In this document: piece after piece, positions 4,284-60,783 of the stretch
How positions within the stretch are numbered: the stretch's first letter is position 1
Layout: each line of letters begins with the position of its first letter
IMG/VR virus record: IMGVR_UViG_3300045988_145476
Length of the DNA stretch: 64,000 bases
Source: a virus
Direction: 5' to 3' (one strand)
Translations under genes and position numbers: made by a program
Notes under the pieces: model-generated
Seen by the model: only the letters and a program-made list of their open reading frames with translations
The model's database searches: none
Told to the model about the DNA's origin: nothing

Positions 4284-4330
4284 ACAAATTCGTAGAAATA
4301 TTGTTCGGAAATAATTTGAAAAGTAAAACT

Positions 4331-13344: not shown

Positions 13345-13522
13345 AAAAGAATATCAGGAACACTGCAAGCATAGCCCCTACAGTGGGCAATGCTACAAAA
13401 AGTCATTCATATCGGGTGTAGCAAACAATGTGCATGTGAACATGCGGTGTGACGGGAAATGCCCCCGTATGAGTAATTACGACAAGAGAAATAAATTAAA
13501 TAGCCTTGGACGGGCTTTGTAA
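13337..13522 (+). CDS. small Cys-rich hypothetical protein
   Basis: 61-aa ATG ORF. Confidence 0.4.
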   Translation: MNRKEYQEHCKHSPYSGQCYKKSFISGVANNVHVNMRCDGKCPRMSNYDKRNKLNSLGRAL

Positions 13523-13535
13523 AATCCATATTGAT

Positions 13536-14252
13536 ATGAAAAAGTATATTGGAACAAAAGAAGTTGAAGCAATGCCTATGACACTGGGTGAGCTTATCAA
13601 CAAAAGCGGTCGAAATCCGTATGAGAATGACGAAAAGATGCACGGTAACGATGAAAAAGGTTATCTTGTGAAGTACAAGGATGGTTACGAAAGCTGGTCG
13701 CCTGCCGAACCGTTTGAGGAAGCATATAAATGTGCAGATACATTCCTTGACCGCTTGCATATTGAAATGCGGGATTTATATGAAAAGATGGATAAGCTCT
13801 CTCCATTTATTGAATCTGGCAAAATAGATGAAATTGTGACTGACAAATATCAGAACTATTTGCTTCGGTTGCAACATAGAATCATGAGCAGGTATATCAA
13901 TGTATTGGAATGCCGTATTGGTAGGCTTGATGGAAGTCCCGAAGCACCTTTACATCAAATGTCATTTGGTGATGCTATTGAAGTTCTCAAACAAGGTGGT
14001 GCTATCCGTAGAGCTGGATGGAACGGTAAAGGGTTATTTGTTGTTAAGCAAATTCCGGCTCATATCACCGAAGACATTATTCCTAAAATGCAGTCACTTC
14101 CCCAGTCAGCCAAAGACATCATTATGTCCCGTGAGAATAAAGTAATTGACTACACAAGTCAAATGCTTATTATTAATCCGGACGGCAGGGCAGATTCATG
14201 GGTTCCGTCTGTCAGTGACGTGTTCGCAGAAGACTGGGAGATAGTTATCTAA
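13536..14252 (+). CDS. two-domain protein with a C-terminal DUF2829 (Tad2-like) domain
   Basis: I prefer the ATG at 13536. The C-terminal 'MSFGDAIEVLKQGGAIRRAGWNGKGLFVVKQ' matches the DUF2829 signature (F.eAl.alk.Gkkv.R.gWngkg). The N-terminal 'IGTKEVEAMPMT...GYLVKYKDGYESWSPAEPFEEAY' is a recurrent phage domain. Confidence 0.6.
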   Translation: MKKYIGTKEVEAMPMTLGELINKSGRNPYENDEKMHGNDEKGYLVKYKDGYESWSPAEPFEEAYKCADTFLDRLHIEMRDLYEKMDKLSPFIESGKIDEIVTDKYQNYLLRLQHRIMSRYINVLECRIGRLDGSPEAPLHQMSFGDAIEVLKQGGAIRRAGWNGKGLFVVKQIPAHITEDIIPKMQSLPQSAKDIIMSRENKVIDYTSQMLIINPDGRADSWVPSVSDVFAEDWEIVI

Positions 14253-14994: not shown

Positions 14995-15197
14995 ATGCAC
15001 AAGAAACCGCATTGTGGATATTACAAAGTGAAGACCATTTTATTTTGTGGGAGAATCGCCCTTGCCGGCCGCACGTCCTGCAAAAGGAAAGTTCCTACCA
15101 GCCTCTTATTCGTGTGAACGGAACTTATTACCATGTGAAATATGATAACGGAGAACCCGTAGTAGATTATTCCTCTCCCGTAGATTGCGATGAATGA
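14991..15197 (+). CDS. hypothetical protein
   Basis: 68 aa with ATGA overlaps on both sides. Confidence 0.45.
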   Translation: MNAQETALWILQSEDHFILWENRPCRPHVLQKESSYQPLIRVNGTYYHVKYDNGEPVVDYSSPVDCDE

Positions 15198-15651
15198 TAC
15201 ACAGTTTACACAAGCACTTACAAAGGCAATGCCTATGCTGACGGGTTATTCCCGTAACCTTATCGCAGAGGTTTCCGATGCGGATGATTTGCTCCAGCAT
15301 ACGTTACTGAAAGCGTGGGATAATCGTGACAAGTTCTATGATACAGGAAGTTTCACCGCATGGCTCTGTACGATAATGCGGAACACGTTCATCAATTTTA
15401 TCCGAAAGGAGAAGTCCACAGTAGTAAGTGAGGACTGGGTGTTTGACGGTTTCGCAAAGGACGATGTGAACGACTACGATATTAGACAGGCGGTACAGTC
15501 GTTACCTTTTCCCGAAAGAGAATTGTGCGTTTGGTGGATGCACGGTTACTCCTATAAGGAACTTGCGGAAGCGTATGATATTCCTATGGGAACGTTAAAG
15601 AGCCGTGTCTTTCACGTAAAGAAGTTGTTGCGGGAAAAATTAAACCGCTGA
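15190..15651 (+). CDS. ECF-type sigma-70 family RNA polymerase sigma factor
   Basis: Region 2: 'LLQHTLLKAWDNRDKFYDTGSFTAWLCTIMRNTFINFIRKE'. Region 4 HTH: 'LPFPERELCVWWMHGYSYKELAEAYDIPMGTLKSRVFHVKKLL'. Confidence 0.85.
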   Translation: MNDTQFTQALTKAMPMLTGYSRNLIAEVSDADDLLQHTLLKAWDNRDKFYDTGSFTAWLCTIMRNTFINFIRKEKSTVVSEDWVFDGFAKDDVNDYDIRQAVQSLPFPERELCVWWMHGYSYKELAEAYDIPMGTLKSRVFHVKKLLREKLNR

Positions 15652-17665: not shown

Positions 17666-19003
17666 ATGGCTTCAAATGAAAAAGACTCTCCGATTAGTCT
17701 ACTTGAAACTCTATCGGAAATTGATGGTAACTTGGAGTATTTTGCGGTCGCTAAGGACGGGACTACCTATAAATGTACTCCCGCCCAATTAAAGGATTTT
17801 GTACTGAAAGGCGAAACTCCAGTGGTTCGCATACCTTTAGCGGTATTGAACTTGAGCAATTCTTCAAGCAGCGAGGATATACTCAACGCTTTTGGCGGTA
17901 AGGAAACTTTCATCGCCCTTTGTGAGAAAATCTATGGCAGGGATGTGGTATGCGTCTGTCAGGGTTTTGCCAGTGATGATGATGAAAACATGAAGACTGG
18001 ATATGTAACGCAGGCGATTTCCTGCAAGCATATTGACGCTGAGAACGCAATACTCATGTTCCTTATCAACATAGACAACGTTTCCCACCGGCTTATGATA
18101 AATTGCGTGGACGGTACGGCATCATTCTCCAAGACTACGGTGGATGATGCCAGTGTTATTTTGCTCCCCGATGATGTGAACAGTATTGAACAAAATTACT
18201 CGTCCAAACAGATATTTGACGCTTTTGGCGGTAAGGATGCCTATAACGGTTACGTAAGCAAAATCACCCAGAAGTCGGTTATAAAAATCGGAGATGCTTT
18301 ATATGCCGTTTCACAGGTGTTAGGTTCTTCCTATACCGACGAAAACAATAGCCAGTTAGTCGTGCAGACCATTGCTATGAACGTGATAAAGTACATACAG
18401 GTTACTGTAACCGGCGGTACCGCAAAAGCCATTGTCGGGAAATGGGACGTCGTTGACGCTGAGAAGATACTCACCAAAGACAATACGACCGCTTATACTC
18501 CGACCAATGATTATCATCCCGCTACGAAGAAGTATGTGGATAATATCAATTATGGTAAGGTTATTAACGTTTCTGTGGGCACTTATCTTACTACCAATAA
18601 AAACGAAAAAGACAGGGAAGCAATAGACCTTATAAATACCATTTTTGGTTCGGTTGATAATCTGAAAGAAATAATCCAGGATATTATAGCGAACCACACC
18701 AAGTATTATTTTCACAGTTATAATAGCAAAGATAATTGTATTGAACTTAGTAGCATTTACTCTTTTCACAACCCTGAAACTGAAGAATATAACTTGCAAT
18801 GCAATATCAGTTATTATACTAATAACGGTCCTGTTTCCAAGCGTATGGGATTTAAACTAATGCCCAATGATGAAGACTGCGCTGCCTCTATAGAAGATAT
18901 ACTCACTTCCGATAATCTACAAAGAGTTGTTAAACGTACTAAATCTGAATACGATGGTATTGGTATTAAAGATAATTCTACAATGTATGCAATAACTGAA
19001 TAA
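17666..19003 (+). CDS. tail fibre / receptor-binding protein
   Basis: 'TPTNDYHPATKKYVDN' matches the common fibre motif (..d.aaTKgYVD). There is an internal duplicated segment: 'EDILNAFGGKETF' and 'KQIFDAFGGKDAY'. Confidence 0.6.
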   Translation: MASNEKDSPISLLETLSEIDGNLEYFAVAKDGTTYKCTPAQLKDFVLKGETPVVRIPLAVLNLSNSSSSEDILNAFGGKETFIALCEKIYGRDVVCVCQGFASDDDENMKTGYVTQAISCKHIDAENAILMFLINIDNVSHRLMINCVDGTASFSKTTVDDASVILLPDDVNSIEQNYSSKQIFDAFGGKDAYNGYVSKITQKSVIKIGDALYAVSQVLGSSYTDENNSQLVVQTIAMNVIKYIQVTVTGGTAKAIVGKWDVVDAEKILTKDNTTAYTPTNDYHPATKKYVDNINYGKVINVSVGTYLTTNKNEKDREAIDLINTIFGSVDNLKEIIQDIIANHTKYYFHSYNSKDNCIELSSIYSFHNPETEEYNLQCNISYYTNNGPVSKRMGFKLMPNDEDCAASIEDILTSDNLQRVVKRTKSEYDGIGIKDNSTMYAITE

Positions 19004-19015
19004 AAATTCAAAGGT

Positions 19016-19395
19016 ATGGATAGTAATTTAAAAGTTGGTTCTAATAATGCAGGATTGTTTGTTGGTAATATTGAGATATTAGGGGGATAACAGTTGATTA
19101 TGAAGATGGCTTCTTTAATGATAATGGTTCGGCGTGTATTATAGTTAATAATTCGCAAGAAACTAAATCTTTTAATATAGATAATAATACAGTTAATGTT
19201 GCTTCAAATAGTATTTCCTTTTTATATAGTTATTCCAATTGGAAAATATCTACTAATACAGATATTATATATGATTTTCGTTTTGGCGATGCTGATAATG
19301 GAGAAGCTAATGATACTATTACAGCAAAGGCAAATGATGTATTATTTAATTTTACTGGTTATGGTTCTTATTTAGTTTTAGTAATAAAAGAATAA
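19016..19395 (+). pseudogene. frameshifted small gene, interrupted at a G5 tract; paralogue of 19407-19868
   Basis: From the ATG at 19016 there are 24 codons to a TAA at 19088. The -1 frame is open from 19087 to the TAA at 19393-19395. One extra G in the 19082-19086 run, or a -1 slip, would give one ORF of about 126 aa. Confidence 0.5.
19082..19086 (+). repeat. G5 homopolymer at the frame break
   Basis: Read directly: TTAGGGGGATAA. Confidence 0.95.
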
Positions 19396-19406
19396 ATATA
19401 ATTGAT

Positions 19407-19868
19407 ATGGATAAAGATACGAAAGATATTAACGGGGGGGGGGTAAGAGTAGGTATAAGTAATACGAGTATTCGTATTGGAAATCAACTTATTGCTGGCA
19501 AAGAATTTGATATTAAACAACTTGTTGATAATATTATATTTGCAGATGATTTAGTACATAAAGAAATTAATGGACAACTTGTTCTTATTTGCAATCTTAG
19601 TAGTATCCCTATTTATTTATATCGAGATTCAGTAAGAATTGAAATAAAAAAACAACATATCGAATGGTATTCATTTAGAGCACCTACTGCTATTAGTCTT
19701 TTTAATGAAGATAATACTCCAATAAGAGCTATTACACAAAAGGAGTCTATATCCAATAATTTTGTTATAGAAATAACTGATTCTGTCGTTAATAATGGCG
19801 ATAGTGTATTTGATATTGCAGATAGTACAGGGATTTTCGGTTTGGTTTGTGTTCTAATGAATGCGTAA
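19407..19868 (+). CDS. hypothetical protein with a G10 tract in codons 10-13
   Basis: 153-aa ATG ORF. The tract encodes 'NGGGV'. It lies in a very AT-rich context downstream of the fibre genes. Confidence 0.55.
   Translation: MDKDTKDINGGGVRVGISNTSIRIGNQLIAGKEFDIKQLVDNIIFADDLVHKEINGQLVLICNLSSIPIYLYRDSVRIEIKKQHIEWYSFRAPTAISLFNEDNTPIRAITQKESISNNFVIEITDSVVNNGDSVFDIADSTGIFGLVCVLMNA
19434..19443 (+). repeat. G10 homopolymer inside a coding region
   Basis: Read directly: AACGGGGGGGGGGTAAG. Confidence 0.95.
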
Positions 19869-20413: not shown

Positions 20414-21088
20414 ATGCTGGACAAATCAAAAACGGACCCGAAGTTAGGTAGGGAAATCCACCAACTTCTACATGACACAGGAATCGAAACCCCTATGATA
20501 GACTCAACGTTTCAGACCGAATCTGAAAAGTTTACCGCCATACGGGACAGCTTTAAGACTATCATGCAAACTCTTGGAATGGACTTGACCGATGATAGCC
20601 TTTCGGAAACCCCAAATCGTATTGCCAAGATGTACCTCAACGAAATATTTTGGGGTCTTGATTACAACAACTTCCCGAAAGTAACCACCATAGACAATAA
20701 GATGCAGTATAATTCCATGCTGCTGGAAAGAAACATAAAAGTTTCTTCATTCTGTGAGCACCACTTTGTGAACTTTGTAGGCAGTGCGTATGTTGCTTAC
20801 ATCCCGCACGGGAAAATAATCGGTTTGTCAAAGATAAACCGCATTGTTGAGTTCTTCTGCCGCAGGCCACAAGTGCAGGAACGCCTGTGTGAACAAATAT
20901 GGGCGGCTCTCTGCCATGTACTTGAAACCGAAGACATTGCCGTTCTTATTCGTGCAGAACATTTCTGCGTTAAGTCAAGAGGAGTTGAGGATATTAATTC
21001 CGATACGGTTACTTCCCGTTTGGGCGGTTTGTTCTATGACAGTGAGCAAAGGGACGAGTTTTATAAGGTACTCAACTTTGGTGTATGA
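20414..21088 (+). CDS. folE: GTP cyclohydrolase I
   Basis: 'SFCEHHFVNFVGSAYVAYIPHGKIIGLSKINRIVEFFCRRPQVQERL' contains the FolE hallmark motifs CEHH, GLSK and RPQVQERLT. Confidence 0.9.
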   Translation: MLDKSKTDPKLGREIHQLLHDTGIETPMIDSTFQTESEKFTAIRDSFKTIMQTLGMDLTDDSLSETPNRIAKMYLNEIFWGLDYNNFPKVTTIDNKMQYNSMLLERNIKVSSFCEHHFVNFVGSAYVAYIPHGKIIGLSKINRIVEFFCRRPQVQERLCEQIWAALCHVLETEDIAVLIRAEHFCVKSRGVEDINSDTVTSRLGGLFYDSEQRDEFYKVLNFGV

Positions 21089-24261: not shown

Positions 24262-24619
24262 AGTATTAAGGCAAGCACTGAACGCCTTATTTTATCTCTG
24301 CTCTCTAATAGGATTCATGCAGTTCTTATCTCTTATAATGTTTCCTCACTTGAGATTGGTTGTTCTCATACTTATTGCCGTTGGAATTTTCCTATGGTGT
24401 ATTATCTATGCTGTGGAAACCCCAAGCCAGTATTACTACTATGTGGTCGCACAAGTAGAGGGGAAATTCTTATATACTCGAATAAAGTCCGAAAAGGAGC
24501 TTACCTATTGGGGAGCCACTGAACTAATTTCGAGGGAAAGGGAACTCGCTTATCCTATTATCGTTATTAACATGCAAAGAATAACCGAAGAAGAATATAA
24601 CTCCGTATATTTTCCCTAA
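24248..24619 (+). CDS. membrane protein (2 TM)
   Basis: 123 aa. Hydrophobic segments LFYLCSLIGFMQFLSLIMF and LVVLILIAVGIFLWCIIYAV. Confidence 0.5.
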   Translation: MKYAKVLRQALNALFYLCSLIGFMQFLSLIMFPHLRLVVLILIAVGIFLWCIIYAVETPSQYYYYVVAQVEGKFLYTRIKSEKELTYWGATELISRERELAYPIIVINMQRITEEEYNSVYFP

Positions 24620-25014
24620 TGCTTAGCCCCTTGCAAATTCGGATGCTTAAAGGACTTGTTTGCCCTTATTGTCACCGACCCACCCAGCTTGTAGACAGTT
24701 CCGAAGTGTATGGCCGTTCTTATGGTATGATTTATTTGTGTAGACCTTGTAATGCGTACGTGGGATGCCACCAAGGAACGACCAACGCTTTGGGACGTGT
24801 CGCAAATGCTGAATTGAGGATAGCCAAAAAGTTGGCGCATGAAAAGTTTGACCCGTTATGGAGAAACGGTTACATGACAAGGCATGAAGCGTACAAGTGG
24901 TTGTCTGACAAATTAGGAATCCCTGCCGAATATACCCATATAGGAATGTTTAATGTGGACACTTGTCACAAAGTTGTTTCCCTTTGTATAAATTATCTTC
25001 AAGAAAAGTTATGA
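24619..25014 (+). CDS. DUF3268-like zinc-finger protein
   Basis: 'CPYCHRPTQLVDSSEVYGRSYGMIYLCRPCNAYVGCHQGTTNALGRVANAELRIAKKLAHEKFDPLW' matches the DUF3268 zinc-ribbon pattern as I remember it. Confidence 0.6.
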   Translation: MLSPLQIRMLKGLVCPYCHRPTQLVDSSEVYGRSYGMIYLCRPCNAYVGCHQGTTNALGRVANAELRIAKKLAHEKFDPLWRNGYMTRHEAYKWLSDKLGIPAEYTHIGMFNVDTCHKVVSLCINYLQEKL

Positions 25015-25769: not shown

Positions 25770-26222
25770 ATGGTAACTATTCAAGAAGAAACAGCAGTTA
25801 AAATGCGCAGCTTGCTTGCGTCTTTGACAGTGTTTTATCAAAAGACCCATGTATATCACTGGGATTTGGTCGGTAGAAGTTTCAATCAGCTCCATGCGTT
25901 CTTCGAGGAACTCTATAATGAGGCGGTGAAAAATACCGATGCAGTCGCAGAACGTTTACGACAGGCAAATATACGTACTAACCTATCGTTGACGGAAGCG
26001 GTAAGACTTTCCGGAGTAGAAGATGACGTATCTGCCGAGAGTGACGAGGAAATGGTAACTGATTTGATACGTTCTCTGGCAATATTAACTGCCTTGCAAA
26101 CGGAAATATTCATGGAAGCCAATGATGCAAACGATTATGTAACGGCTGACCTAATGACCCAGCTAACCAAACAGGCCGATTTCAATAGTTGGTTCTTGAC
26201 CTCTTGGAAAGAAAACAGATAG
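25770..26222 (+). CDS. dps: Dps / ferritin-like DNA-binding protein
   Basis: 'FYQKTHVYHWDLVGRSFNQLHAFFEELYNEAVKNTDAVAERLRQ' matches the Dps signature (hvyHWnv.G..F..lH..fee.y.e....D.iAERi). I prefer the ATG at 25770 over the GTG at 25740. Confidence 0.8.
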   Translation: MVTIQEETAVKMRSLLASLTVFYQKTHVYHWDLVGRSFNQLHAFFEELYNEAVKNTDAVAERLRQANIRTNLSLTEAVRLSGVEDDVSAESDEEMVTDLIRSLAILTALQTEIFMEANDANDYVTADLMTQLTKQADFNSWFLTSWKENR

Positions 26223-26392
26223 TGAAAAAACAGTTTTTGTGTGTTAGTTTAATTCATTCAGTTAAGAATAGCGGTTCCCGTAGGTTATTTAGTAATGTTT
26301 CGTTTCGTATTAGTAGTAAATTGAAATGCACAGGATTTGCGTCCTTATAGACCAAGCGAGGTCGAACTATTGGAATTAGTTATTCGGTAAAG

Positions 26393-26422
26393 AGAGTGGC
26401 TTGTGAAAGTCGCTCTTTTTTC
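26393..26422 (+). terminator. rho-independent terminator
   Basis: AGAGTGGC (26393-26400) pairs with GTCGCTCT (26409-26416), giving 8 bp including two G-U pairs. A T6 run follows at 26417-26422. Confidence 0.55.
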
Positions 26423-26872
26423 TGCCTTGTCAGAACGAAAAACGGGTAAATTTATCTCTGAAACTAAGACAACCTCATTTTTCTATTTTAAAAAGACCAA
26501 TTTTTACCCTCTTCCAACAGATACTATCCACATGCAGGAAAAATTTCCTTTTTTGCAGGGAAAATCTTCCCTTTTCCATAGAAATAACATAACTGCCTAA
26601 CTAAGCTAACCAATAGAAAGTGTAGGGTAAACCGTACTTCTTTAAGTAATTACGTATGAACGCTCCCAAAAGAAAACAGATTCGCGGCTGAATGTTTTCT
26701 GTACTCTATAATACTTAATACTATATAATACTACATAAAAGATATATGTGGTGGGTTTCTCTCAAATTACGTAAACTCATGTGGTGGGTAATGGGTAGAT
26801 AGGTAGAAAAGAAAGGTTATTGTAGATACCGATAGAAAATGGCCCTACGCATACGTGTAGACGTGGTTGTGG

Positions 26873-27072
26873 GCTTATTCTAATTAGCTATTTACGGCAA
26901 TAAGCATTATTTTCCATGCGTAATTAGCGTTATTTACTGCGTGTAATTAGCTATTTTCTCTCTGTACGAGCGTTTATTTTAATTAGAAACGCAGTTATTT
27001 TAATTAGAAATACGCTTATTCTAACTGGAAATAGGTTTATTTTTCTGTGCAAATAAGCTATTTTAGGCGAAA
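26873..27072 (+). repeat. iteron-like array built on TTATT(N)TAATTAG(A/C)(A/T)A
   Basis: Core motifs at 26980 (TAATTAG), 27001 (TAATTAG) and 27022 (TAACTGG) are phased exactly 21 bp apart, each ending in GAAA. Degenerate units lie on both sides, including TAATTAG at 26881, 26921 and 26944. Confidence 0.75.
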
Positions 27073-27207
27073 TTTCCATAGATGTTTACAAAAACGCCTA
27101 TTTTTTAATTTAAGCCGATATTGATTATCAGATAGTTAGCAAAAAATCTCCTATGAAAGTATAAAAAACGCAGATTTAGAAATATTTTTACTTTCTAATT
27201 AGATTTT

Positions 27208-27223
27208 GGTTATTGCAATAACC
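27208..27223. repeat. perfect 16-bp palindrome GGTTATTGCAATAACC
   Basis: Read directly. Related GGTTATTG half-sites lie at 26815-26822, 28084-28098 (GGTTATTGTAATAAC) and 28147-28154 (reverse complement). Confidence 0.9.
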
Positions 27224-27428
27224 ACAACTACGTATGTAGATAACCAGTTACGCAGTAGAATTGGTGGTTTATTATGTGTAATTAGTATATAGCTGTATGT
27301 AACTATATGTAATTACCGCAGATTTATTATATAACTACCGGATTAATTGTTCCTGCGTGTTATTTTTCCGTATTAATTAAGTAGGAAATATATTATATAG
27401 AGTAATTGGGAGTTATTTTATTTATCGT

Positions 27429-27681
27429 ACGGCGAAAAATTTAATTTTTGGCGGGATAATTTCTAATTAGCGTATTATAATAAGTAATTAATCACCGTAA
27501 TAAGGAAAGATTTTATTCTCCGTGCGGATTATTCGTATTATCTACGGGAATATTATATGAATTTCTAACTGGAAACCTTTTTACGGCGGAAAATTAAGTA
27601 GTAATTATATTAGTTAGCGTATAAAGCGAAAAACAATTCGGCGAATTTTTAATTTACGGCGGGATAATAGTACGTAGCGTA
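27429..27681 (+). repeat. three copies of a composite ~40-45-bp repeat (CGGCG-A/T run-GGCGGGATAAT-TAGCGTA)
   Basis: R1 27429-27474, R2 27583-27621 (degenerate) and R3 27639-27681. GGCGGGATAAT occurs at 27450 and 27658. TAGCGTA occurs at 27468, 27615 and 27675. Confidence 0.7.
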
Positions 27682-28171
27682 GACAGGATTTCAGTTCACG
27701 GAGCTGAATTTACTGGCAGGGGGGTACCCTTAAATGGAATGCGGCGCACGGTCGGCTTGGGGTAGTACGGTTAGGTAAGAAAGGAGTGGTGGAAAGTCGG
27801 ACAATAATTAGTGTATATATGATAACTTCGGAAGTTTGTGTATGTGTGGTAACTTTGGTGGATACGGGTGGTGTGCGTGTGAAAATCGGTGGTAACGGGT
27901 GAAAAACGGGTGATTTGGAAATGTACTTGAAAATACAGGGTGCGGTTGACGTTTGGTGTGGAAATAAATTGCCGGAAGTTTGGAGTTCTCACTAAATATT
28001 AGTATATTAATATATAATTACTTGTATATAGTACTATGAAAGATATAGTGTCCGGATGTTTGGGATGCTTATCGGTCGGTTATGGTTATTGTAATAACTG
28101 GTAGTCGGTACGGTGGTATTTCCGTTAAATAATGTTATTATATAAACAATAACCAAATATTTTACCGGATA

Positions 28172-28207
28172 TGTTTGGTTATCTTATATAAAGTAACTAT
28201 ATTTGTA
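28172..28207 (+). promoter_or_regulatory. consensus promoter inside 36-bp repeat copy 1
   Basis: TGTTTGGTTATCTTATATAAAGTAACTATATTTGTA. TTTG at 28174-28177, N20, TATATTTG at 28198-28205. It is identical to 30727-30762. Confidence 0.7.
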
Positions 28208-28270
28208 ATGTGAAAAACGAAACGCACCTATCGGTATATTGCTGACGGGTAACCAGAAAATCCTACGACA

Positions 28271-28476: not shown

Positions 28477-29019
28477 ATGGAACGAAACGAATTAATCATG
28501 GAGATACACAAATGTTCTCCGATGTATCCAGTTAAGAAGTTGCAGCAGATGAATGACGACACGCTGGCTAATCTCTACAAGTGGACGTGCAAACCTGCGA
28601 AAGTGGTAAAGGACGACCGTCTTTATTCCCAATCGGGAGACGTGGTGAAAGTAAAGGAAACGTATGAGGAGAAATGCGGTGAGTTGCTTGACCCGTACGA
28701 CCCGGATTATCTGAGCACGTCCCCTACGAAGGACGACCCTATCTCCCCTTATGAGAAACGGTTCCTGCATAAGGTGTCTATCTTGCAGAACAAGTTGCGC
28801 AGGGAAGGCGTTTCCGCTGACTGGGACGAGTACCGCCAGTGTTTCCGTGTCGCAAGGTACATAAGTTCGTACCCGACTTATCGGTATGTGCGGGTGAACT
28901 TGGACGAGAACGACTATTCGTTCGGTGACGAAAAGGACGATTTCTTTTGGGACGGTAAAGTATCTGCCGTGGTTGCGGAAGTGAAAAAATGGGTGAACGC
29001 CAAACTTATCAAAAAATAA
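28477..29019 (+). CDS. hypothetical protein
   Basis: 180-aa ATG ORF in a GC-richer region. The long antisense shadow ORF is judged spurious. Confidence 0.6.
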   Translation: MERNELIMEIHKCSPMYPVKKLQQMNDDTLANLYKWTCKPAKVVKDDRLYSQSGDVVKVKETYEEKCGELLDPYDPDYLSTSPTKDDPISPYEKRFLHKVSILQNKLRREGVSADWDEYRQCFRVARYISSYPTYRYVRVNLDENDYSFGDEKDDFFWDGKVSAVVAEVKKWVNAKLIKK

Positions 29020-29025
29020 AACGCT

Positions 29026-29223
29026 ATGAAAAGGATATGTGATTTTATACACGGACGGTTCGGACGCAAAGTTTTGAAACCGGGTTACAGGGAAATATGG
29101 GTTCGCACGATGTATTGCCTGCTGCTCGTAATCGGAGTACTGGCTATGGCGGTGGTCGTGCAAGTGTGGAGCTGGCTGGTCGGTTTCCTTAATGCGATGG
29201 CTTGGGGGACTACGGTATGGTGA
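29026..29223 (+). CDS. small membrane protein
   Basis: 65 aa. Hydrophobic segments 'MYCLLLVIGVLAMAVVVQVWSWLVGFL'. Confidence 0.45.
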   Translation: MKRICDFIHGRFGRKVLKPGYREIWVRTMYCLLLVIGVLAMAVVVQVWSWLVGFLNAMAWGTTVW

Positions 29224-29981
29224 CTATCGGTATATTCGGCAGGGAGTACAGGTTTTGTCGCAGTGTGAAGGCCTCTTACAGTGACCGGCATAATCGTGCG
29301 GTGAAACTTGCGGAAAGGTTCGAGAGCCTGTCCGAGAAGTTTGACGGTATGTTCAGTAGGGGCGGTTGCGGTGAGACGCTCAATTCCCGTCTGGCGCTTG
29401 CCTGCAAGATGATGATGTACACCGGCATCCGTATCGGTAACGAGGGAAGTGCCGAGGGGTATATGACTAAACCGCACCCCAATTCCAAGGAACAGCCCCA
29501 GTTCGTGCAGACGTACGGCCTTACCACGCTTCTTCCCCAGCACATGAGTATCAGACGTGGGAAAGTGTACCTTAACTTTCTTGGTAAGAGACGTGTGGAC
29601 AACAGCTTTGTACTTGACGGTAAACTCGCAGGACAGGTTAGGGACATGTCCGGGTATATCTCCGAGGGGGAAACCCTTTTCGAGATTACTTCCTACGAAC
29701 TTACCAAGTTCATAAAGAAGTATGTGGGCAGACAGTTTACCCCGAAGGACTTCCGTACCATGAGGGCTAATATGTACGCATGGGAAAAGTTCGAGGAGAT
29801 ATGCGAAAGGGAGCTGCCCAGTACCAAGACCGAGTATAACGGAGAGGTTAAGGAAATCGCCACTTATGTCAGCGAGAAACTCAACAATACTCCGGGTGTA
29901 TGTAAGAAAAGCTATATTGATGAACTGCTTTGGGACGAGTTCAGTGACGCCCGTCCCGTAACTAAAAGGAATAAAAAATGA
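29217..29981 (+). CDS. type IB DNA topoisomerase (compact, bacterial/poxvirus-like catalytic domain)
   Basis: All five catalytic-pentad contexts are recognisable: 'TGIRIGNE' (Arg), 'YGLTTL...LNFLGKRRV' (Lys), 'FTPKDFRTMRAN' (Arg), 'LNNTPGV' (Asn/His position) and 'CKKSYI' (Tyr). I prefer the ATG at 29217 over the TTG at 29202. Confidence 0.8.
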   Translation: MVTIGIFGREYRFCRSVKASYSDRHNRAVKLAERFESLSEKFDGMFSRGGCGETLNSRLALACKMMMYTGIRIGNEGSAEGYMTKPHPNSKEQPQFVQTYGLTTLLPQHMSIRRGKVYLNFLGKRRVDNSFVLDGKLAGQVRDMSGYISEGETLFEITSYELTKFIKKYVGRQFTPKDFRTMRANMYAWEKFEEICERELPSTKTEYNGEVKEIATYVSEKLNNTPGVCKKSYIDELLWDEFSDARPVTKRNKK

Positions 29982-30726: not shown

Positions 30727-30762
30727 TGTTTGGTTATCTTATATAAAGTAACTATATTTGTA
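30727..30762 (+). promoter_or_regulatory. consensus promoter inside 36-bp repeat copy 2
   Basis: Identical 36-mer to 28172-28207, lying 29 nt upstream of the ATG at 30792. Confidence 0.7.
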
Positions 30763-36945: not shown

Positions 36946-37482
36946 ATGGCTACAATTACAAGAGCGTTTGAGTTCGACGCAGCACATCGTGTAATGAATG
37001 AGAAAGTAAAATGCTTCAATTTGCACGGGCACCGTTTTAAAGTGGAAATGACTTTTGAGTATAACTCCAAGAGTCTTCTTGGATACGCTATTGACTTTAA
37101 GGAGATAAAGCGTATTGCCTGCGGATATATTGATGAACATTTAGACCACGCTTGCCTACTTAACCCCGAAGATACCGAGCTTATTGAGCTGTGCAGAAAA
37201 CAAAACTGGCGTCTGTGGGTTATGGGAATGGGTGTGTATGGTGACATCAACCCGTCTGCGGAGAATATTGCTTCCGAGCTTTTCTATATTATCAGACAGT
37301 TATTCATTAATGAGCCTTGCGGTTTGCGTCTTACAAACTTACGGCTGTATGAGACACCGAATTGCTGGGTTGATTGTTCCCGCATTGATTATGTGGCTAC
37401 AAATATGTTCCTTGAGAATCTTGGTACATGGAGAAAACAAAAGGGTTCAATGAAGTACGACATAAGAGAAGACCATGAGTAA
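36946..37482 (+). CDS. queD: 6-carboxy-5,6,7,8-tetrahydropterin synthase (QueD/PTPS family)
   Basis: 'FEFDAAHRV...KCFNLHGHRFKVEMTFE' contains the QueD Cys-x3-His-Gly-His zinc/catalytic motif. 'DFKEIK' is typical. It overlaps the terL start by 8 nt. Confidence 0.85.
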   Translation: MATITRAFEFDAAHRVMNEKVKCFNLHGHRFKVEMTFEYNSKSLLGYAIDFKEIKRIACGYIDEHLDHACLLNPEDTELIELCRKQNWRLWVMGMGVYGDINPSAENIASELFYIIRQLFINEPCGLRLTNLRLYETPNCWVDCSRIDYVATNMFLENLGTWRKQKGSMKYDIREDHE

Positions 37483-40198
37483 AAAGAAAAAAATAACGCC
37501 TAAAGAAGAAGGATACGTATTTCCTACCGAGGGTGGTAGAATCGAAGACATCCACACCGAAGAACTTGCGGGTAAATCGGTATCGTTTGACGCACACGAA
37601 ATCACTTCCAAGATTATAGAGTTCGGTAAAATACTTACCGGACTTTCTTTGTATAAATACCAAGAAGAAGCGGTGTATGCGATTATTTATTCTATCATAA
37701 CTTTTTCCGGCGATGTGAAAACAATGCTTTTCAGTCGTCAATCAGGTAAATCGGAAGCTATGGCTTTTGTTATTGATACGCTTACCGTATTACTTCCGGC
37801 CCTTGCCAAAGTGATACCCGATTTGGAGCAATTCTCCAGCGGTTTCCGTATCGGATTGTTTGCTCCGCAATCAGACCAAGTTGTTACTACCTATTCTCGT
37901 GCAATGACCCGTATAAATTCGGCTAATGCGGAGATGGTTCTTAGTGACCCAGATATTGACGTGTACTTAGAAAGTTCCGCCCGTCTTGAACTTTCAAACG
38001 GTTCTTATCTTGCCGGACAGGTTGCGAGTAAACAGTCCAAGATTGAATCAAAGACGTATGATTTGGTAATAGTCGAAGAGGCACAGGACGTTGACGACCT
38101 TATTGTTCAGAAATGTTATGCTGAGGATACTTTAATAAATTTGCCCTATGGAGATTATGCCACTATTAAAGATGTGGTTGAGAGAAAACTTCCCGTGTTA
38201 ACTCCAGAGGGAAAAATGAAACCGTCTGCATGGCATAATACGGGTGTTCAGGGTGTTTATAAAATCACATTATGCAACGGCAGGGAGCTTGAAGTAACTT
38301 CTCAACATAGACACTTGGTTAGACGTAGGAATGTTAAGGAGTCTTTTGAACTTCATACAGATAAACTAAAAGTTGGTGATAGACTTGCTGTTCCCGATTT
38401 TATTCCGACATTCGGACATTATGGTGACTATTCTATGGGAGTAGTTATCGGTTTTTTGCTTGGTGACAGATGCTTTAGCGGAAGTCAAGTGCAGTTCTGC
38501 GGTTTTGAAGAAGTTTGGAATTTCGTTTCCCCTCATGTGGAAAAACTCGGCTGTGTTGCTTTTACCAATTGCTTTAATAAAAACGGTTTATATGAGGGTA
38601 CTTTCCGAAACGTTGATGGAAAAAATACTCCTAATAAAATAATTGGTCTTTTGAAAGATTTAGGTCTTTGGGGATTAAAAGGAGAGAATAAGTTTATACC
38701 TAATTTACCCTACTCTAAAGAGTTTCTTGTAGGCCTTATTTGCGGACTATTTGAAAGTGATGGAAGTGTACAGGCTCTTAAAAAGGGTAACATACGATAT
38801 GCGTCAATTTCTAAGAAGTTGGTTTATGGTTTAAGCCTTCAATTGCAAAAGTTTGGAATACACTGCTCTATATCTGTAAAGAGTAACATTGGTAAAGGAG
38901 TGTATGAAAATACCAAGCCCTTATATGAATTGCATATTAGGGATAACATTTCGGTTATACGTTTTTGTGAGAATTTTCGCCTTGTAACAAAAAATGAGAA
39001 GCTCGATAAGGCTAAGTTAATTGCTGAAAGAATTAATAAGAAAGCCGGAGCTACTAAGGTATATGATGGTAACAGATATGTAAGAATCAAGTCTATTGAA
39101 TACACAGGTGAAAAACAGACCTATTGTGTAACGGTTCCTACCGAGGGGCATTGGATAATCGCTAACGGAATTGTAAGTGGTAACTCAATAGAACCTATGT
39201 TATCTGCCACTGGTGGAACACTTATAAAGGTAGGAACTACTGGTATGGTTAAAAACCATTTTTGGTATGAGATACAACATAACAAGAATATTGACCGGAA
39301 AATAGTAGACCCCCGTATAAAGAATCATTTCGAGTATGACTACAAGCGTATTATCCATGACCGTAGACTTCAATACGATATAGACCATAAACGTTTCCAC
39401 CTTAACTATGAAGCGGATATTCAACGTAAAAAGGAACGTTGGGGTGAAGACTCACAAGCTTTCAAACTCGCTTATGCGCTTATTTGGGACTTAGAAAGCG
39501 GTATGCTTCTTTCCGATAAGGAGTACAACGGTATCATAAACAGGAAACTCGGTTTGCAAGATGCCCGTAATGAGGATTACGTGGTTGCCGGCCTTGATAT
39601 TGGTAAGCATCCTGCCGAAACGGTTCTTACTATTGTCAAGGTATTCCACGGTGAAGATGTATTCGACCGACCGTATAAACAGATACTTGCGTGGGCTTGT
39701 CTTGGTGGTCTTGATTATGAGAGCCAGCATCATGTGATAATGGATTTTATTGTAGAGTTTAATATTTCTGTTATCTTTGCGGATTATACGGGTGTCGGTA
39801 AGCCAGTTGTTGACCGTCTTATGTATGCCTGCGGAGAGTATGTGACAATAGAACCTTATACGTTCACCGCACAAAGCAAATCGGATATGTGGTTTAACTT
39901 CCTTTCCGATATACAGACCCACCACCTTATTGTACCGGCCAATAAGAAGACCCGTATGACACCGGAGTACATGAAGTTTGAGGAGCAAATGAAAAATTGC
40001 CAGAAGTACTATAATGGGACATATTTGGTATGTGAAAAGAGTGAGGGTTACTTTGATGATATGGTAGACAGTTGTGCCCTTGCTTGCATGGCCGCTACTT
40101 ATGAACAGGAAGTAAAGGAAGAAATGGAAGTTACTCCGAATCCTTTGTATGAAGGAGTAACAAGTACCATACAAGCGATAAGAAGACATTCATTTTAA
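37475..40198 (+). CDS. terL: terminase large subunit, interrupted by an intein
   Basis: Walker A 'LFSRQSGKSE' and Walker B 'YDLVIVEEAQ'. The C-terminal half has the size and layout of a nuclease domain. It is followed directly by the portal gene. The 907-aa length is explained by a 357-aa insertion. Confidence 0.9.
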   Translation: MSKKKKITPKEEGYVFPTEGGRIEDIHTEELAGKSVSFDAHEITSKIIEFGKILTGLSLYKYQEEAVYAIIYSIITFSGDVKTMLFSRQSGKSEAMAFVIDTLTVLLPALAKVIPDLEQFSSGFRIGLFAPQSDQVVTTYSRAMTRINSANAEMVLSDPDIDVYLESSARLELSNGSYLAGQVASKQSKIESKTYDLVIVEEAQDVDDLIVQKCYAEDTLINLPYGDYATIKDVVERKLPVLTPEGKMKPSAWHNTGVQGVYKITLCNGRELEVTSQHRHLVRRRNVKESFELHTDKLKVGDRLAVPDFIPTFGHYGDYSMGVVIGFLLGDRCFSGSQVQFCGFEEVWNFVSPHVEKLGCVAFTNCFNKNGLYEGTFRNVDGKNTPNKIIGLLKDLGLWGLKGENKFIPNLPYSKEFLVGLICGLFESDGSVQALKKGNIRYASISKKLVYGLSLQLQKFGIHCSISVKSNIGKGVYENTKPLYELHIRDNISVIRFCENFRLVTKNEKLDKAKLIAERINKKAGATKVYDGNRYVRIKSIEYTGEKQTYCVTVPTEGHWIIANGIVSGNSIEPMLSATGGTLIKVGTTGMVKNHFWYEIQHNKNIDRKIVDPRIKNHFEYDYKRIIHDRRLQYDIDHKRFHLNYEADIQRKKERWGEDSQAFKLAYALIWDLESGMLLSDKEYNGIINRKLGLQDARNEDYVVAGLDIGKHPAETVLTIVKVFHGEDVFDRPYKQILAWACLGGLDYESQHHVIMDFIVEFNISVIFADYTGVGKPVVDRLMYACGEYVTIEPYTFTAQSKSDMWFNFLSDIQTHHLIVPANKKTRMTPEYMKFEEQMKNCQKYYNGTYLVCEKSEGYFDDMVDSCALACMAATYEQEVKEEMEVTPNPLYEGVTSTIQAIRRHSF
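38114..39184 (+). mobile_element. intein with LAGLIDADG homing-endonuclease domain
   Basis: Starts with Cys ('QK|CYAEDTLINLP'). Block B is 'VTSQHRH'. Two LAGLIDADG motifs: 'VVIGFLLGDRCF' and 'LVGLICGLFESDGSV'. Ends 'HWIIANGIVSGN|SIEP' with a +1 Ser. 1071 nt, in frame. Confidence 0.85.
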
Positions 40199-40209: not shown

Positions 40210-41784
40210 ATGGGAATTGATGTTGGTGGAATGAACCCTACGGGAGTTGGTAGCTATAACGGTTATCCGGGTTCTAAATATTGGAATGTGGACTCTCGTC
40301 CTCTTAGCGAGGCTACTAATGTATTGCGCTCTTTCGTATTGCAGAATATCGTTCAAGATAACCAGTGGGAACTTGACCGTATTACTAAATACTACTTGTA
40401 TTGGAAGTTCTATGACGGGATGCATTATAAGGACTTCAATGATGGGATGCTTTCTTTCAACTATATCAAGGCATTTATTGATAAGGTTAACATGTTCCTG
40501 CTTGGAAACGAGGCTTTCAATTTTCGTGTGCAGAGCTATTATACCACCCAAGTTGATAAGGAAGTTGAGAAGAACGCTGAGGAACTTATGATGTACCACT
40601 GGGGTAAGTCCGATAAATTGCAGCTCGCCTATGAAATGCTCCAGATGGGTAGTATTACTGGTGATTGTTGGCTCGGTGTTAATTGGGAAGAAGAGGAACG
40701 TTACTGCCGTATTTCTGTTTATGACAGCCGTCAGTGCTTCGTTACATTTAAGAACGGAGATTACAATAGACAAGAAAGCTTTATGGTTCGTATGCCCCTC
40801 GACCAGAACTCCAATGAGAAACATTACCGTTTGTACGTGGTTCGCTGGACGGAAGAAAGTTACGAGACTTGGTACCAGACTGATGTTTCCATTGAGGAGA
40901 GTAAAGTCGCCAAATACGAATACCAGAGAACTGATAACCCGTATGGCTTTATACCAGTAGTCCATATAAAGAATAAGCCTAACTCTGCTGGGTATTACGG
41001 TAAATCGGACGCAAATGATATTCTCAAAATCAATAAGATTTATAACGAGATTATGCAACAGTTGAAAGCCGTAATTGATTATCATGTTACACCGACAACG
41101 GTAATTACCGGAGCTTCTGCTAAGTCGCTTAAAAAAGGCCTCGGCCAAATATGGTCTGGACTACCTGCCGAAGCTAACGTGTTTAATCTTGGCTTGGATG
41201 TTGACCTTTCCGCTACGGTGAATTTTGCCAAGGACTTAAAGACAGCCATGCACGAACTTTCCGATGTTCCGGAAAACGCACTCGGTAAAATTCAGGCTAT
41301 CAGTAATACTTCTGCGGCCGCTTTACAAATTACTTATCACCCGCTGATACAACAGGCGAATATCAAAGCTCTTACTTATGGTGAGGGAATTACCAAAGTA
41401 AACAGCATGATACTCCGGATGCTTCAAGTAATGGACCCCGATAATTCACGTTTGAAGAAACTGCTCCGGAAGTCCAAAGACTTTTTAGTTGAAAACAAAA
41501 TCGAGCCTGTATTCGCTTACGGTTTTCCGAAAGATAAAATGGATGAACTTCAACGGGCACAACTTGAATTGCAAATGAAGTTGAGTTCCCGTAAGGACAT
41601 TATGGAACGTATGGGTAAACAAAATATTCCCGAACTTCTGGATGAAATTGATGAAGATACCATACATCAGGCGATGGTTCAAGAACAAATTAACCGTCTT
41701 TCGGGTTTTGGTACTGTGAGTGAACAAGCCGGTGAAAATACTGGCGAAGATACTGGTGAAAACGGTCTGGAAAATGAAGAATAA
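40210..41784 (+). CDS. portal protein
   Basis: 524 aa, immediately after terL. '...ISNTSAAALQITYHPLIQQA...' resembles the SPP1-gp6-type portal core (SG.ALk..Y.PL). Acidic C-terminal tail. Confidence 0.8.
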   Translation: MGIDVGGMNPTGVGSYNGYPGSKYWNVDSRPLSEATNVLRSFVLQNIVQDNQWELDRITKYYLYWKFYDGMHYKDFNDGMLSFNYIKAFIDKVNMFLLGNEAFNFRVQSYYTTQVDKEVEKNAEELMMYHWGKSDKLQLAYEMLQMGSITGDCWLGVNWEEEERYCRISVYDSRQCFVTFKNGDYNRQESFMVRMPLDQNSNEKHYRLYVVRWTEESYETWYQTDVSIEESKVAKYEYQRTDNPYGFIPVVHIKNKPNSAGYYGKSDANDILKINKIYNEIMQQLKAVIDYHVTPTTVITGASAKSLKKGLGQIWSGLPAEANVFNLGLDVDLSATVNFAKDLKTAMHELSDVPENALGKIQAISNTSAAALQITYHPLIQQANIKALTYGEGITKVNSMILRMLQVMDPDNSRLKKLLRKSKDFLVENKIEPVFAYGFPKDKMDELQRAQLELQMKLSSRKDIMERMGKQNIPELLDEIDEDTIHQAMVQEQINRLSGFGTVSEQAGENTGEDTGENGLENEE

Positions 41785-42134: not shown

Positions 42135-42887
42135 ATGAACGAAGACGAAAGAAAAGTAGGAATACCGGAAAGTATTACGATTAATGGCGTTACTTATTCT
42201 GTAAAGGATACTCCAGAACTGCAACAGTTCATTCAATCAGTCGCCAAAGTAGAAAAAGCTAAATTGTACTCCCAGTTTGAGAGTATGAAGCGGCAAATTG
42301 ATGCCCTCGGCAAAGTACAGGTTTTACCGGAAACATCCACTGTACAAGAAATGCTCGAACAGGTTAAAAGTACACTCAAAGAGGATTTGCGGAATGAACT
42401 TCCCTCTCTCCTTAAAGAAGTTGTTCAACCAGTACTTACCGCTACCGAGCAATCCCGTTTGAATGAAATTGAAGCGTTCAAGGAAAAACTTTTGAAGGAA
42501 AACGAGGGAGCCTGCTTCCCCGAACTTGTAGAAGGAAACACACGAGAAGAGTTACTCGCATCTATGGAAAAATCAAAGAATCTCCGTGCTAAGTATAGCG
42601 CTCCTTTCATTAATCCAAATGCGGATACTCACGTAACAGACCCGTTGCTTGAAAAACAAAGAGCGGAAATGATGGGGCAACAATCTACTCCTACGCCAGC
42701 TCCCGCACCTGCTCCCGCACCTCAAGCACCGTCTACTCCTACGGTTCCACCGGCAGCACCACGTGTTCCCTCTCCAGAGGCTTCCGAACCGACTAACATC
42801 AAACGGATGTCAATGTCAGAGTTTGAAAAGAACCGTGAGCAGTTGAGAGCACAGCTTGAACAGACTTACGGTAACGGAACTCTCTAA
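42135..42887 (+). CDS. scaffolding protein (putative)
   Basis: It lies between the portal and capsid genes. Long helical, charged sequence with a 'PTPAPAPAPAPQAPSTPTVPPAAP' linker. Confidence 0.55.
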   Translation: MNEDERKVGIPESITINGVTYSVKDTPELQQFIQSVAKVEKAKLYSQFESMKRQIDALGKVQVLPETSTVQEMLEQVKSTLKEDLRNELPSLLKEVVQPVLTATEQSRLNEIEAFKEKLLKENEGACFPELVEGNTREELLASMEKSKNLRAKYSAPFINPNADTHVTDPLLEKQRAEMMGQQSTPTPAPAPAPAPQAPSTPTVPPAAPRVPSPEASEPTNIKRMSMSEFEKNREQLRAQLEQTYGNGTL

Positions 42888-42921
42888 GACAAGTAATTAC
42901 AATTAAAATTTAAAGCTCTTT

Positions 42922-43920
42922 ATGAATACACTTTTGTTTATTGTGGTAGCCTTTGTGCTTCCATTCTTATCCGGATTGTTCTTTGGTACTACCACTTCGG
43001 CGGGTGCCAATGAGGGCGGATATACTTCAATTCCCCAAGCAGTTCGTGATTTCTATTCACGTGAAGTTCTTTTCCAAGCACAGCCCCGTTTACGTTTCTT
43101 GCAGTTCGCTAAGGTAAAACGTGACTTACAAGCGGTACGAGGAAAGTCTATTGTTTTTGTTAAATATGATAATTTGGCCGGCGGTGGTTCACTGGAAGAA
43201 AGTGATGTATTGACACCCGAAGGTATGAGTACTTCGGAAATCATTTGTCCAGTTAAAGAACAGGCTAATTCCGTACAAGTAACAGAATATTTATTGCGTA
43301 CATCATTGTTGGACGTATTAGGAGACGCTTCAAAATTGCTCGCTAATAACATGGCGGTTGTTTTGGATAAGCAATTCCGTGATACCGTATTGGGTACGAC
43401 TAACGCTGTTTATGGTGGAGACGCTACCTCACTTACAACACTTGCAGCCGGTGACGGATTTACTACTAAGACCGTTAAAGACGCAGTTGAAACGCTTGCT
43501 ACACATAACGCCCCTCGTATTAATGGAGACTACTATGTATGTATAGCCCACCCGCATCAATTAAGACAGCTTCGTGATGATAGTAACTGGATTAATGCCA
43601 ATACTTATATGGGCCGTCGTCAGTTGTATATCGGAGAGGTAGGTATGTATGAAGGATGTATCTTCATTGAAACTACACAGATGCCTGTATTGGACGCTGC
43701 TGCTATTAAGGAAAAATATGGTGACGGAGCCACTATCTCTACCGCTTATGAAGCAGTGTTCTTCGGAGATAACGCATACGCATGGGGTGTAGCTCTTGAC
43801 GTTGAGCTTCGTGACGATGGTGTTGTAGAACTCGGCCGTAAACACACACTTGGTTGGTACGGTATTTGGGGTACTACTATCCTCGAAGAAAAGAATATTG
43901 TAAAGGCTCTCACCGCATAA
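42922..43920 (+). CDS. major capsid protein
   Basis: 332 aa, after the scaffold gene. 'LRFLQFAKVK...GKSIVFVKYDNL...LTPEG...ICPVKEQANSVQVTEYL' resembles the N4-gp56/HK97-fold capsid families, from memory. A hairpin follows the stop. Confidence 0.7.
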   Translation: MNTLLFIVVAFVLPFLSGLFFGTTTSAGANEGGYTSIPQAVRDFYSREVLFQAQPRLRFLQFAKVKRDLQAVRGKSIVFVKYDNLAGGGSLEESDVLTPEGMSTSEIICPVKEQANSVQVTEYLLRTSLLDVLGDASKLLANNMAVVLDKQFRDTVLGTTNAVYGGDATSLTTLAAGDGFTTKTVKDAVETLATHNAPRINGDYYVCIAHPHQLRQLRDDSNWINANTYMGRRQLYIGEVGMYEGCIFIETTQMPVLDAAAIKEKYGDGATISTAYEAVFFGDNAYAWGVALDVELRDDGVVELGRKHTLGWYGIWGTTILEEKNIVKALTA

Positions 43921-60336: not shown

Positions 60337-60347
60337 CGGAACATTTA

Positions 60348-60379: not shown

Positions 60380-60401
60380 AACGGTTTTAAGTTTATGTGA
60401 T

Positions 60402-60767: not shown

Positions 60768-60783
60768 CTTATAATTTACGGAT

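Follow-up and report, generated by a model that had tools for sequence, protein, structure and literature searches.

A TAATTAG motif array in the only large non-coding region of a gut Bacteroides phage, of a type known from terminal or origin-proximal control regions

The stretch of viral DNA analysed here (the window, 64,000 nucleotides of the IMG/VR record IMGVR_UViG_3300045988_145476, one strand) carries a single large non-coding region, the gap (about 26223-28270), which is flanked on one side by a terminator and on the other by a canonical Bacteroides early promoter and houses a degenerate tandem array and further dispersed sites built on the heptamer TAATTAG. Its stretch free of open reading frames (ORFs), 26601-28270, is by far the longest of the window, in which the sole other gap of at least 150 bp measures 192 bp. 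No Rfam family and no tRNA match was found in the gap, and an alternative genetic code or a hidden ORF was considered and rejected, given that the site spacings are not multiples of 3 and that the motif has stops in two frames. The elements follow one another in the order hairpin, block A, purine box, array with dispersed sites, block 2, more sites, block 3, G-rich stretch, block B and promoter:

26395-26422, + strand: terminator-like hairpin and T-run, read from the sequence, closing the upstream unit after a ferritin/Dps-like gene
26707-26746, no strand assigned: AT-rich block A with repeats of the 10-bp unit ATACTACATA; it ranks second among the least stable 40-mers of the window (nearest-neighbour scan; Tandem Repeats Finder, TRF)
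26783-26806, + strand: conserved purine-rich box GGTGGGTAATGGGTAGATAGGTAG, 3′ of block A and 5′ of the array
26873-27072, + strand: degenerate tandem array of about 9-10 units, each with YTATTT and most with TAATTAG
26881-27007, + strand: dense group of five exact TAATTAG copies (26881, 26921, 26944, 26980 and 27001), with the variant TAACTGG at 27022
27019-27031, + strand: variant site TTCTAACTGGAAA, with a second copy (13 nt, 100% identity) at 27563-27575
27076-27150, + strand: conserved block 2, GTTTACAAAAACGCCTATTTTTTAATTTA...TATCAGATAGTTAGC..., directly 3′ of the array
27196-27470, + strand: dispersed TAATTAG copies at 27196 (palindromic), 27279 and 27464 (palindromic), irregularly spaced
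27700-27775, + strand: conserved block 3, GGAGCTGAA...GGGGGGTACCCTTAAATGG, 22 nt, GGGGTAGTAC, once per genome, with a box spacing that is fixed in relatives
27780-27990, + strand: G-rich, C-poor stretch with a 20-bp repeat
27993-28032, no strand assigned: AT-rich block B; no other 40-mer of the window is less stable
28174-28207, + strand: canonical Bacteroides promoter TTTG-N20-TATATTTG of the first genes beyond the gap

An exact scan of the window placed TAATTAG on the + strand at 26881, 26921, 26944, 26980, 27001, 27196, 27279, 27464 and 27805, precisely the nine positions listed in the initial annotation of this DNA, and three of them belong to the 8-bp palindrome CTAATTAG (at 26880, 27195 and 27463), as had also been stated there. 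The cluster extends over 930 bp, and the non-palindromic copies of the gap are all on the + strand. The further statement that the motif is not seen in the other 62 kb holds for the + strand, on which no copy lies beyond the nine within 26881-27811, and fails for the minus strand, which has three copies elsewhere in the window, at 3220, 45290 and 53398. The longer word TTATTTTAATTAGAAA occurs twice (26974 and 26995) and TTATTCTAACTGGAAA once (27016), their cores being 21 bp apart. Shuffling of the whole window was uninformative (15.9 copies expected versus 15 seen), and therefore the signal is one of clustering and not of overall frequency; when the gap alone was shuffled with its dinucleotides preserved, 0.6 copies were expected versus the nine observed and none of 2000 shuffles reached nine, so that the frequency of the motif exceeds what the local composition provides. 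In the complete 88.9-kb genome of Bacteroides phage BS162P1, to which the window is about 99% identical, nine of the ten + strand copies are inside the gap.

Relatives of the window phage were found via its topoisomerase IB gene, a conserved 180-aa early protein and a pattern drawn from conserved block 3, which together yielded about ten further lineages with topoisomerase identities of 57-73%; the topoisomerase served as the anchor, and the 180-aa protein alone gave no match among viral contigs. In every relative a gap without ORFs occupies the corresponding position and its elements follow the same order, and BLAST aligns almost nothing of this gap between lineages, which is unalignable outside three short blocks. 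Within these diverged gaps TAATTAG is the top shared word, with at least two copies in six of nine lineages; across lineages it has 38 sites in 9.7 kb of gaps versus 5 in 73 kb of flanks, and CTAATTAG has 20 versus none. The core AATTAG is significantly enriched relative to local shuffles in the window phage and in the lineages labelled L128, L131 and L146. Alignment of 39 sites gave a 14-bp palindromic consensus, TTTCTAATTAGAAA, and a second class of sites reads GCGTAATTAGCG. Such conservation of a motif cluster across related phages fits protein-binding sites.

The motif also turns over. The gaps of L126, L127, L129/130 and L267 have no TAATTAG enrichment and contain instead other words that are strongly confined to one strand, for example ATAAGAAT and ATTTTTA; different one-strand motifs at the same place are expected if a protein and its site co-evolve. 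In the more distant L132 (MT835482.1, L132 1-600; major capsid protein, MCP, 79.5% identical), the scaffold begins inside its own gap, and this gap has the repeated word GTAATTAC instead of TAATTAG, its first 40 nt being CA-rich. When viral contigs were scanned for exact copies of TTATTTTAATTAGAAA, the only matches were isolated chance ones in unrelated AT-rich contigs, and a literature search retrieved nothing relevant on BS162P1, B. salyersiae phages, CTAATTAG or terminal-repeat motifs.

The tandem array itself was reported in the initial annotation as exactly phased at 21 bp, with degenerate units on both sides and with the sites on the same face of the helix, and only part of this stands. 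By autocorrelation, 26972-27065 has a lag of 21 with a self-identity of 66%, and 26873-26971 has a best lag of 23 with a self-identity of 53%, both above all 1000 shuffles, and no periodicity was detected past 27066. A repeat search returned four units at exact 21-bp spacing with unit identities of 68-77%, and TRF returned 3.3 copies at 79%. Thus the exact register covers only 3-4 of the about 9-10 units (26972-27065), and the degenerate flanking units are real but have a period of about 23 bp. In four strains 98-99.7% identical to the window every site is kept and the number of array units is unchanged. The relatives have short tandems of 19, 20, 22 and 24 bp, and the spacings of neighbouring TAATTAG copies across lineages have no 10.5-bp preference (Rayleigh p 0.33, n=22); therefore, the two-helical-turn register is one recent local tandem duplication of one unit and not a conserved design, and same-face phasing applies to a local tandem triplication only.

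The layout around the sites is conserved. The terminator hairpin, which was missed by a simple terminator scan, has equivalents in L124 and L129, where GTGAA-loop hairpins followed by T-runs occupy the same place. AT-rich blocks are found at the position of block A in L124, L128, L129, L131, L146 and L266, and the GGGTAAGGG...ATAGGTAG theme of the purine-rich box recurs in L124, L126, L128, L129, L146, L266 and L267. Block 2 is recognisable on reading the sequences in L146 (9284-9350) and L266 (about 3412-3470). Over the 1-kb interval 27001-28000, in which the G-rich stretch lies, the GC skew is +0.32, and comparable GT-rich stretches are present in L128 and L146. The site cluster lies between blocks A and B, which rank lowest in stability among all 40-mers of the window. 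The 26-bp core of the early promoter (28174-28199) recurs identically at 30729-30754.

Altogether eight canonical Bacteroides promoters (TTTG-N19-20-TAnnTTTG) were read in the window, all on the + strand, the other -7 elements being at 3260, 20386, 25733, 41839, 48879 and 60372. Their spacers carry a GTTAT...ATAAC inverted repeat, which recurs in relatives and which is also found without a -7 box at 27207-27222 and 28083-28097.

Block 3 is one of the few parts of the gap that is still recognisable in all lineages. Its family form is GAGCTGAA...GGGGTACCCTTAAATGG, 22-23 nt, GGGTAGT, and it was found in every lineage examined, with the diverged form CCGTTAAATGG in L126:

L124, about 9183-9273: block 3
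L128, about 8980-9070: block 3
L129, about 7802-7892: block 3
L131, about 8706-8796: block 3
L146, about 9973-10063: block 3
L266, about 4026-4116: block 3
L267, about 3843-3933: block 3
L126, about 8975-9050: block 3, diverged form

The invariant core of the block is TTAAATGG, which reads CCCTTAAATG in 10 of 11 lineages; L267 and L126 have a second, degenerate copy, and no conserved RNA structure was detected in the block. Block 3 may be a cleavage or recognition site (a pac or cos site, or the boundary of a terminal repeat).

For the location of the genome ends, the large terminase TerL (about 31% identity) and the MCP (about 39%) point to the Streptomyces phages LuckySocke and BRock, to which they are distantly related, as they are to Bacillus phage BCD7. 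The GenBank records of LuckySocke and BRock have exact direct terminal repeats of 344 bp and 221 bp, respectively, both non-coding. In the LuckySocke repeat GCAAAG/CTTTGC occurs 8 times, versus 2 in the neighbouring 9.3 kb, and in the BRock repeat CTATTC/GAATAG occurs 5 times, versus none in the neighbouring 5.6 kb. As in the gap of the window phage, a non-coding region is filled with a lineage-specific 6-7-mer, which in these two phages is present 5-8 times and is nearly absent from the neighbouring kilobases, and the motif differs between lineages. Differently from the window phage, these are actinophages of high GC content with genes of mixed orientation, their motifs are in both orientations, their repeats are shorter, and they have no tandem 21-bp sub-array.

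A second parallel is the left end of T7, where a direct check counted CCTAAAG 11 times on the + strand and never on the minus strand within 332 bp, with most spacings at 13 bp or close to a multiple of 13, on the upstream side of the early promoters. In both phages a 7-bp word recurs about ten times (11 in T7, 9 here), on one strand (all copies in T7; all non-palindromic copies here, three of the nine being palindromes), partly as tandems of constant period (T7, 13 bp; window phage, 21 bp), and confined to a non-coding stretch between the genome end (conditionally placed here) and the early promoters of a one-orientation genome. In T7 the heptamers occupy the 160-bp terminal repeat and the sequence just internal to it. 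T7 is a phage of an unrelated family, however, and its ends are known experimentally, while those of the window phage would be placed by analogy; its motif is non-palindromic and its array spans about 330 bp, versus 930 bp here.

Based on these findings, we tentatively propose, with somewhat less than even confidence, that the TAATTAG cluster is a set of protein-binding sites in a terminal or packaging control region. The TAATTAG copies would be the recognition sites of a sequence-specific, probably dimeric, phage DNA-binding protein; the gap would most likely hold the physical genome ends, as a short direct terminal repeat immediately 5′ of the early promoter; and the packaging and concatemer-processing machinery, in the shape of a small-terminase-like or end-binding protein, could use the array as a platform for loading or recognition, the array being a counterpart of the motif clusters in the LuckySocke and BRock terminal repeats and of the CCTAAAG array at the T7 left end. 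What the analysis shows is the enrichment of the motif, its conservation and turnover across lineages, the conserved layout of the gap and the analogy with the reference phages; from these we infer protein binding, the location of the ends here and the packaging role, and the ends are placed in the gap because the phages related in terminase and capsid have known ends. The terminal or packaging assignment is favoured because the array matches in five respects, namely how long the word is, how often it occurs, how strictly it is confined to the region, where it stands relative to the early promoter (upstream) and how it differs by lineage: TAATTAG is a word in the range of 6-7 bp with at least five copies, essentially confined to the non-coding region, and the gap separates the last gene of the map from the early promoters, as the sole large ORF-free region in an essentially one-orientation genome, with a terminator on one side and a host-type early promoter on the other. 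In these respects the LuckySocke and BRock terminal repeats and the T7 left end fit better than an iteron or partition reading.

Assembly breaks also fall inside the gap. The BS162P1 record (OP172706.1) starts at 27390 and ends at 27444, an overlap of 55 bp that is read as an assembler circle, the European Nucleotide Archive (ENA) contig ERZ505399 NODE_5624 ends at 27394, and MT835482 begins inside its own gap. Two independent SPAdes assemblies (OP172706 and ERZ505399 NODE_5624) thus break 4 bp apart, at 27390 and 27394, which might reflect a physical end or low coverage of AT-rich DNA, or be a coincidence.

Several observations weigh against placing the ends and a packaging site here. Metagenomic contigs of complete length (87-89 kb) break elsewhere, as expected of circularised assemblies, and no contigs starting at conserved block 3, which were sought as a sign of a physical end, were found. 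TerL lies 10 kb downstream of the gap and is only about 31% identical to the reference phages, and no small terminase was recognised, the proteins just upstream of TerL having no match to a TerS family; a small-terminase site adjoining the terminase genes of a phage that encodes TerS is thus not what is found. The lambda cosB R sites, the P1 pac hexamers and the SPP1 pacL/pacR elements are short repeated elements clustered in about 150-200 bp near the packaging start, and they lie beside or within the terminase genes; the several short recognition elements clustered near the would-be packaging start of the window phage resemble them, but with TerL 10 kb away and no TerS recognised. The site cluster of 930 bp is longer than the reference repeats of 221-344 bp. 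The analogy would carry over where the sites lie more readily than how they work, since the T7 and Streptomyces arrays are themselves of unproven function, and the AT-rich flanking blocks of low stability together with the 21-bp tandem array also fit an origin. A DNA-binding partner was looked for in the conserved 180-aa protein, the first early protein; AlphaFold models it with a pLDDT (predicted local distance difference test) of 80, and neither a fold match in the PDB (best E 0.5) nor a Pfam or PHROG family was found, so that nothing points to DNA binding.

An iteron-type origin of replication is a serious possibility, although we hold it unlikely. A phage origin-binding protein would bind the TAATTAG units and the 21-23-bp array and melt the AT-rich block, whereupon the DnaC-like loader would place the DnaB-like helicase. 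The phage encodes a DnaB-like helicase, a DnaC-like loader, a DnaG-type primase, Pol A and HU, and hence needs an origin and an initiator, and no repeat array is found around its replication genes (the DnaC/DnaB module). The period and copy number of the array are iteron-like, with at least three direct tandem repeats (about 17-22 bp at 21-23-bp spacing); four units are clear, and about 9-10 are counted with the degenerate ones, as in the tandem arrays of the iteron origins of lambda (ori), P1 (oriR), R6K and RK2. The bracketing least stable 40-mers could provide the AT-rich unwinding element, one such easily melted block being 130 bp from the array, and the turnover of the motif between lineages also fits the co-evolution of an initiator and its sites. 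However, the consensus TTTCTAATTAGAAA is palindromic and not an asymmetric direct repeat as in classical iterons, the units are only 68-77% identical and so lack high similarity, and the helical phasing is not conserved in the relatives. No Rep- or O-type gene is adjacent, the neighbours being the ferritin-like gene and the 180-aa protein without family or structural match; by position, the initiator candidate is a 257-aa protein upstream of the loader (record 42704-43477), about 15 kb downstream of the gap and beyond the window, and it has no family match. The gap has no cluster of DnaA boxes, and the GC skew is positive throughout, with no switch and thus no origin signal. The suggestion of the initial annotation, that the repeats are the signature of initiator or partition-protein sites, is accordingly kept in part: a non-random, conserved cluster fitting protein sites, an array of plasmid-iteron dimensions and a nearby AT-rich block are present, and the phasing, the palindromic consensus and the lack of an adjacent initiator, of a DnaA-box cluster and of ParA/ParB speak the other way.

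Next in weight, and clearly improbable, is an operator or enhancer array, in which a dimeric phage regulator would bind the palindromes and control early transcription, the candidates being the LuxR-type helix-turn-helix (HTH) protein at 3939-4253 (minus strand) or the neighbouring weak HTH protein. A palindromic consensus of 12-14 bp is what HTH dimers typically recognise, the cluster is placed 5′ of the early promoter, the phage encodes both the LuxR/GerE HTH protein (its only minus-strand gene) and an extracytoplasmic function (ECF)-like sigma factor, and GTTAT...ATAAC palindromes like that of the promoter spacer occur in the gap (27207-27222 and 28083-28097). The sites, however, lie about 370-1300 bp from the only canonical promoter of the gap (28174-28207) and none overlaps it, the distance being 363 bp for the outlying site 27805-27811 and about 700 bp or more for the main cluster, and nine or more sites over 930 bp would be unusual. 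The LuxR HTH was detected only in the L123 and L124 contigs and not in the TAATTAG-rich L128, L131 and L146, in a search that finds close relatives only, and phylogenetic profiling of this HTH against the presence of the motif across lineages was uninformative.

We consider it improbable to much the same degree, or slightly more so, that the repeats are a functionless by-product of slippage in an unconstrained AT-rich spacer. The gap is unalignable between lineages outside the three short blocks, it holds many short tandems of differing periods, and its strong strand-composition bias could account for the orientation bias of the motif. But the same 7-8-mer is kept, at more than 50-fold enrichment, in six lineages diverged beyond alignment, its copies are dispersed and not only in tandem, and the nine cores are invariant in four strains, which is a weak test.

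Far less probable is that the TAATTAG palindromes and block 3 form a previously undescribed end-making module, in which the poxvirus-type topoisomerase IB, and not the terminase alone, would cut or join DNA at CCCTT to generate or resolve the ends. Block 3 does contain CCCTT, the pentamer of the poxvirus topoisomerase IB; L126, however, keeps a 71%-identical topoisomerase and has CCGTT in block 3, which weakens this idea, and for this reason it was downgraded. A partition centromere (parS/parC type) for plasmid-like carriage of the phage is the least credible of all, since no ParA, CbiA or ParB family was found among the 109 BS162P1 proteins and no family relative among 185,579 species-representative bacterial genomes, with no integrase or plasmid Rep found either; the repeats are clustered, partly palindromic and non-coding, and a 421-aa ParA/MinD-like ATPase with a 200-aa C-terminal extension does lie 1.3 kb upstream of the gap in L267 (136-1401) and L127 (5011-6249), but these are lineages without TAATTAG, and this protein gave no tblastn match to BS162P1.

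The window phage is a member of a family of gut Bacteroides phages, so far uncharacterised and with genomes of about 85-90 kb, among which are the isolate BS162P1 (OP172706.1, 88,902 bp; host B. salyersiae, source sewage) and many metagenomic contigs; nearly all proteins of the family are annotated as hypothetical. An 88,946-bp ENA metagenomic contig is 100% identical to the window over 8.5 kb. The search of the 185,579 bacterial genomes returned no relative of the family marker protein. The + strand carries every gene of the window except one, and the genes that bear on the preceding argument are as follows:

3939-4253, minus strand: LuxR/GerE-type HTH gene, the sole minus-strand gene
4265-4636, + strand: gene with a weak HTH_19 match, divergent from the LuxR-type HTH gene
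about 15190-15651: small ECF-like sigma factor of 138 aa with Sigma70_r2 and r4_2 (coordinates from the offset to the BS162P1 record, 75609-76025)
24619-25014: DUF3268 protein, one of the candidate binders of the sites, with HU, the two HTH proteins, the 180-aa protein and the proteins upstream of TerL
25770-26222: ferritin/Dps-like gene, the last before the gap, with its own canonical promoter and kept in several relatives
28477-29019: conserved 180-aa protein, the first early protein
29202-29981: poxvirus-type topoisomerase IB
37475-40198, + strand: large terminase TerL, 907 aa, about 10 kb downstream of the gap
40210-41784: portal
42922-43920: MCP

TerL, portal and MCP come after about 9 kb of small, early-looking genes. 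TerL probably carries an intein, because relatives match it in two pieces and its middle (about residues 257-573) matches unrelated intein-bearing proteins (Stx-phage primase/helicase and NrdE). The divergent pair 3939-4253 and 4265-4636 looks like a regulatory switch, and the ECF-like sigma factor implies phage-specific promoters somewhere in the genome. The replication genes of BS162P1, which lie beyond the window, comprise an intein-bearing helicase, HU, a DnaC-like loader, a DnaB-like helicase, a DnaG-type primase, Pol A and RecA; the D10-like helicase of BS162P1, beyond the window, has Hint and LAGLIDADG domains.

Further observations concern the rest of the genome. Genes for 7-deazaguanine/queuosine precursors, namely a radical-SAM QueE-like protein, GTP cyclohydrolase I and QueD/PTPS (window 2524-3243, 20414-21088 and 36946-37482), together with QueC in the BS162P1 record (60181-60909), form a set that suggests modified DNA. 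The protein at 13506-14252 has Tad2-like (anti-Thoeris) and crAss001_48/sequestin domains and a homologue in L266, and is likely an anti-defence gene on these domain matches. At 17666-19407 a 445-aa ORF stops at 19003 and is followed by an AT-rich (GC 0.28), ORF-free stretch at 19004-19195, the BS162P1 annotation giving one 633-aa protein across the same interval; the window strain may have a frameshift or a variant there.

In conclusion, this work describes a motif array of the type known from terminal or origin-proximal phage control regions, its function being unproven, and overturns nothing known. For this family of gut Bacteroides phages, the single control region provides a concrete handle on the genome ends, the packaging signal and/or the origin, as it unites a palindromic site (TTCTAATTAGAA) that is conserved and co-evolves, a conserved block present in single copy and an early promoter of canonical form, and the palindromic site offers a route to the DNA-binding protein presumed to recognise TAATTAG. 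Beyond the family, the parallel with the reference phages suggests that motif-filled terminal regions may recur in phages with direct terminal repeats.

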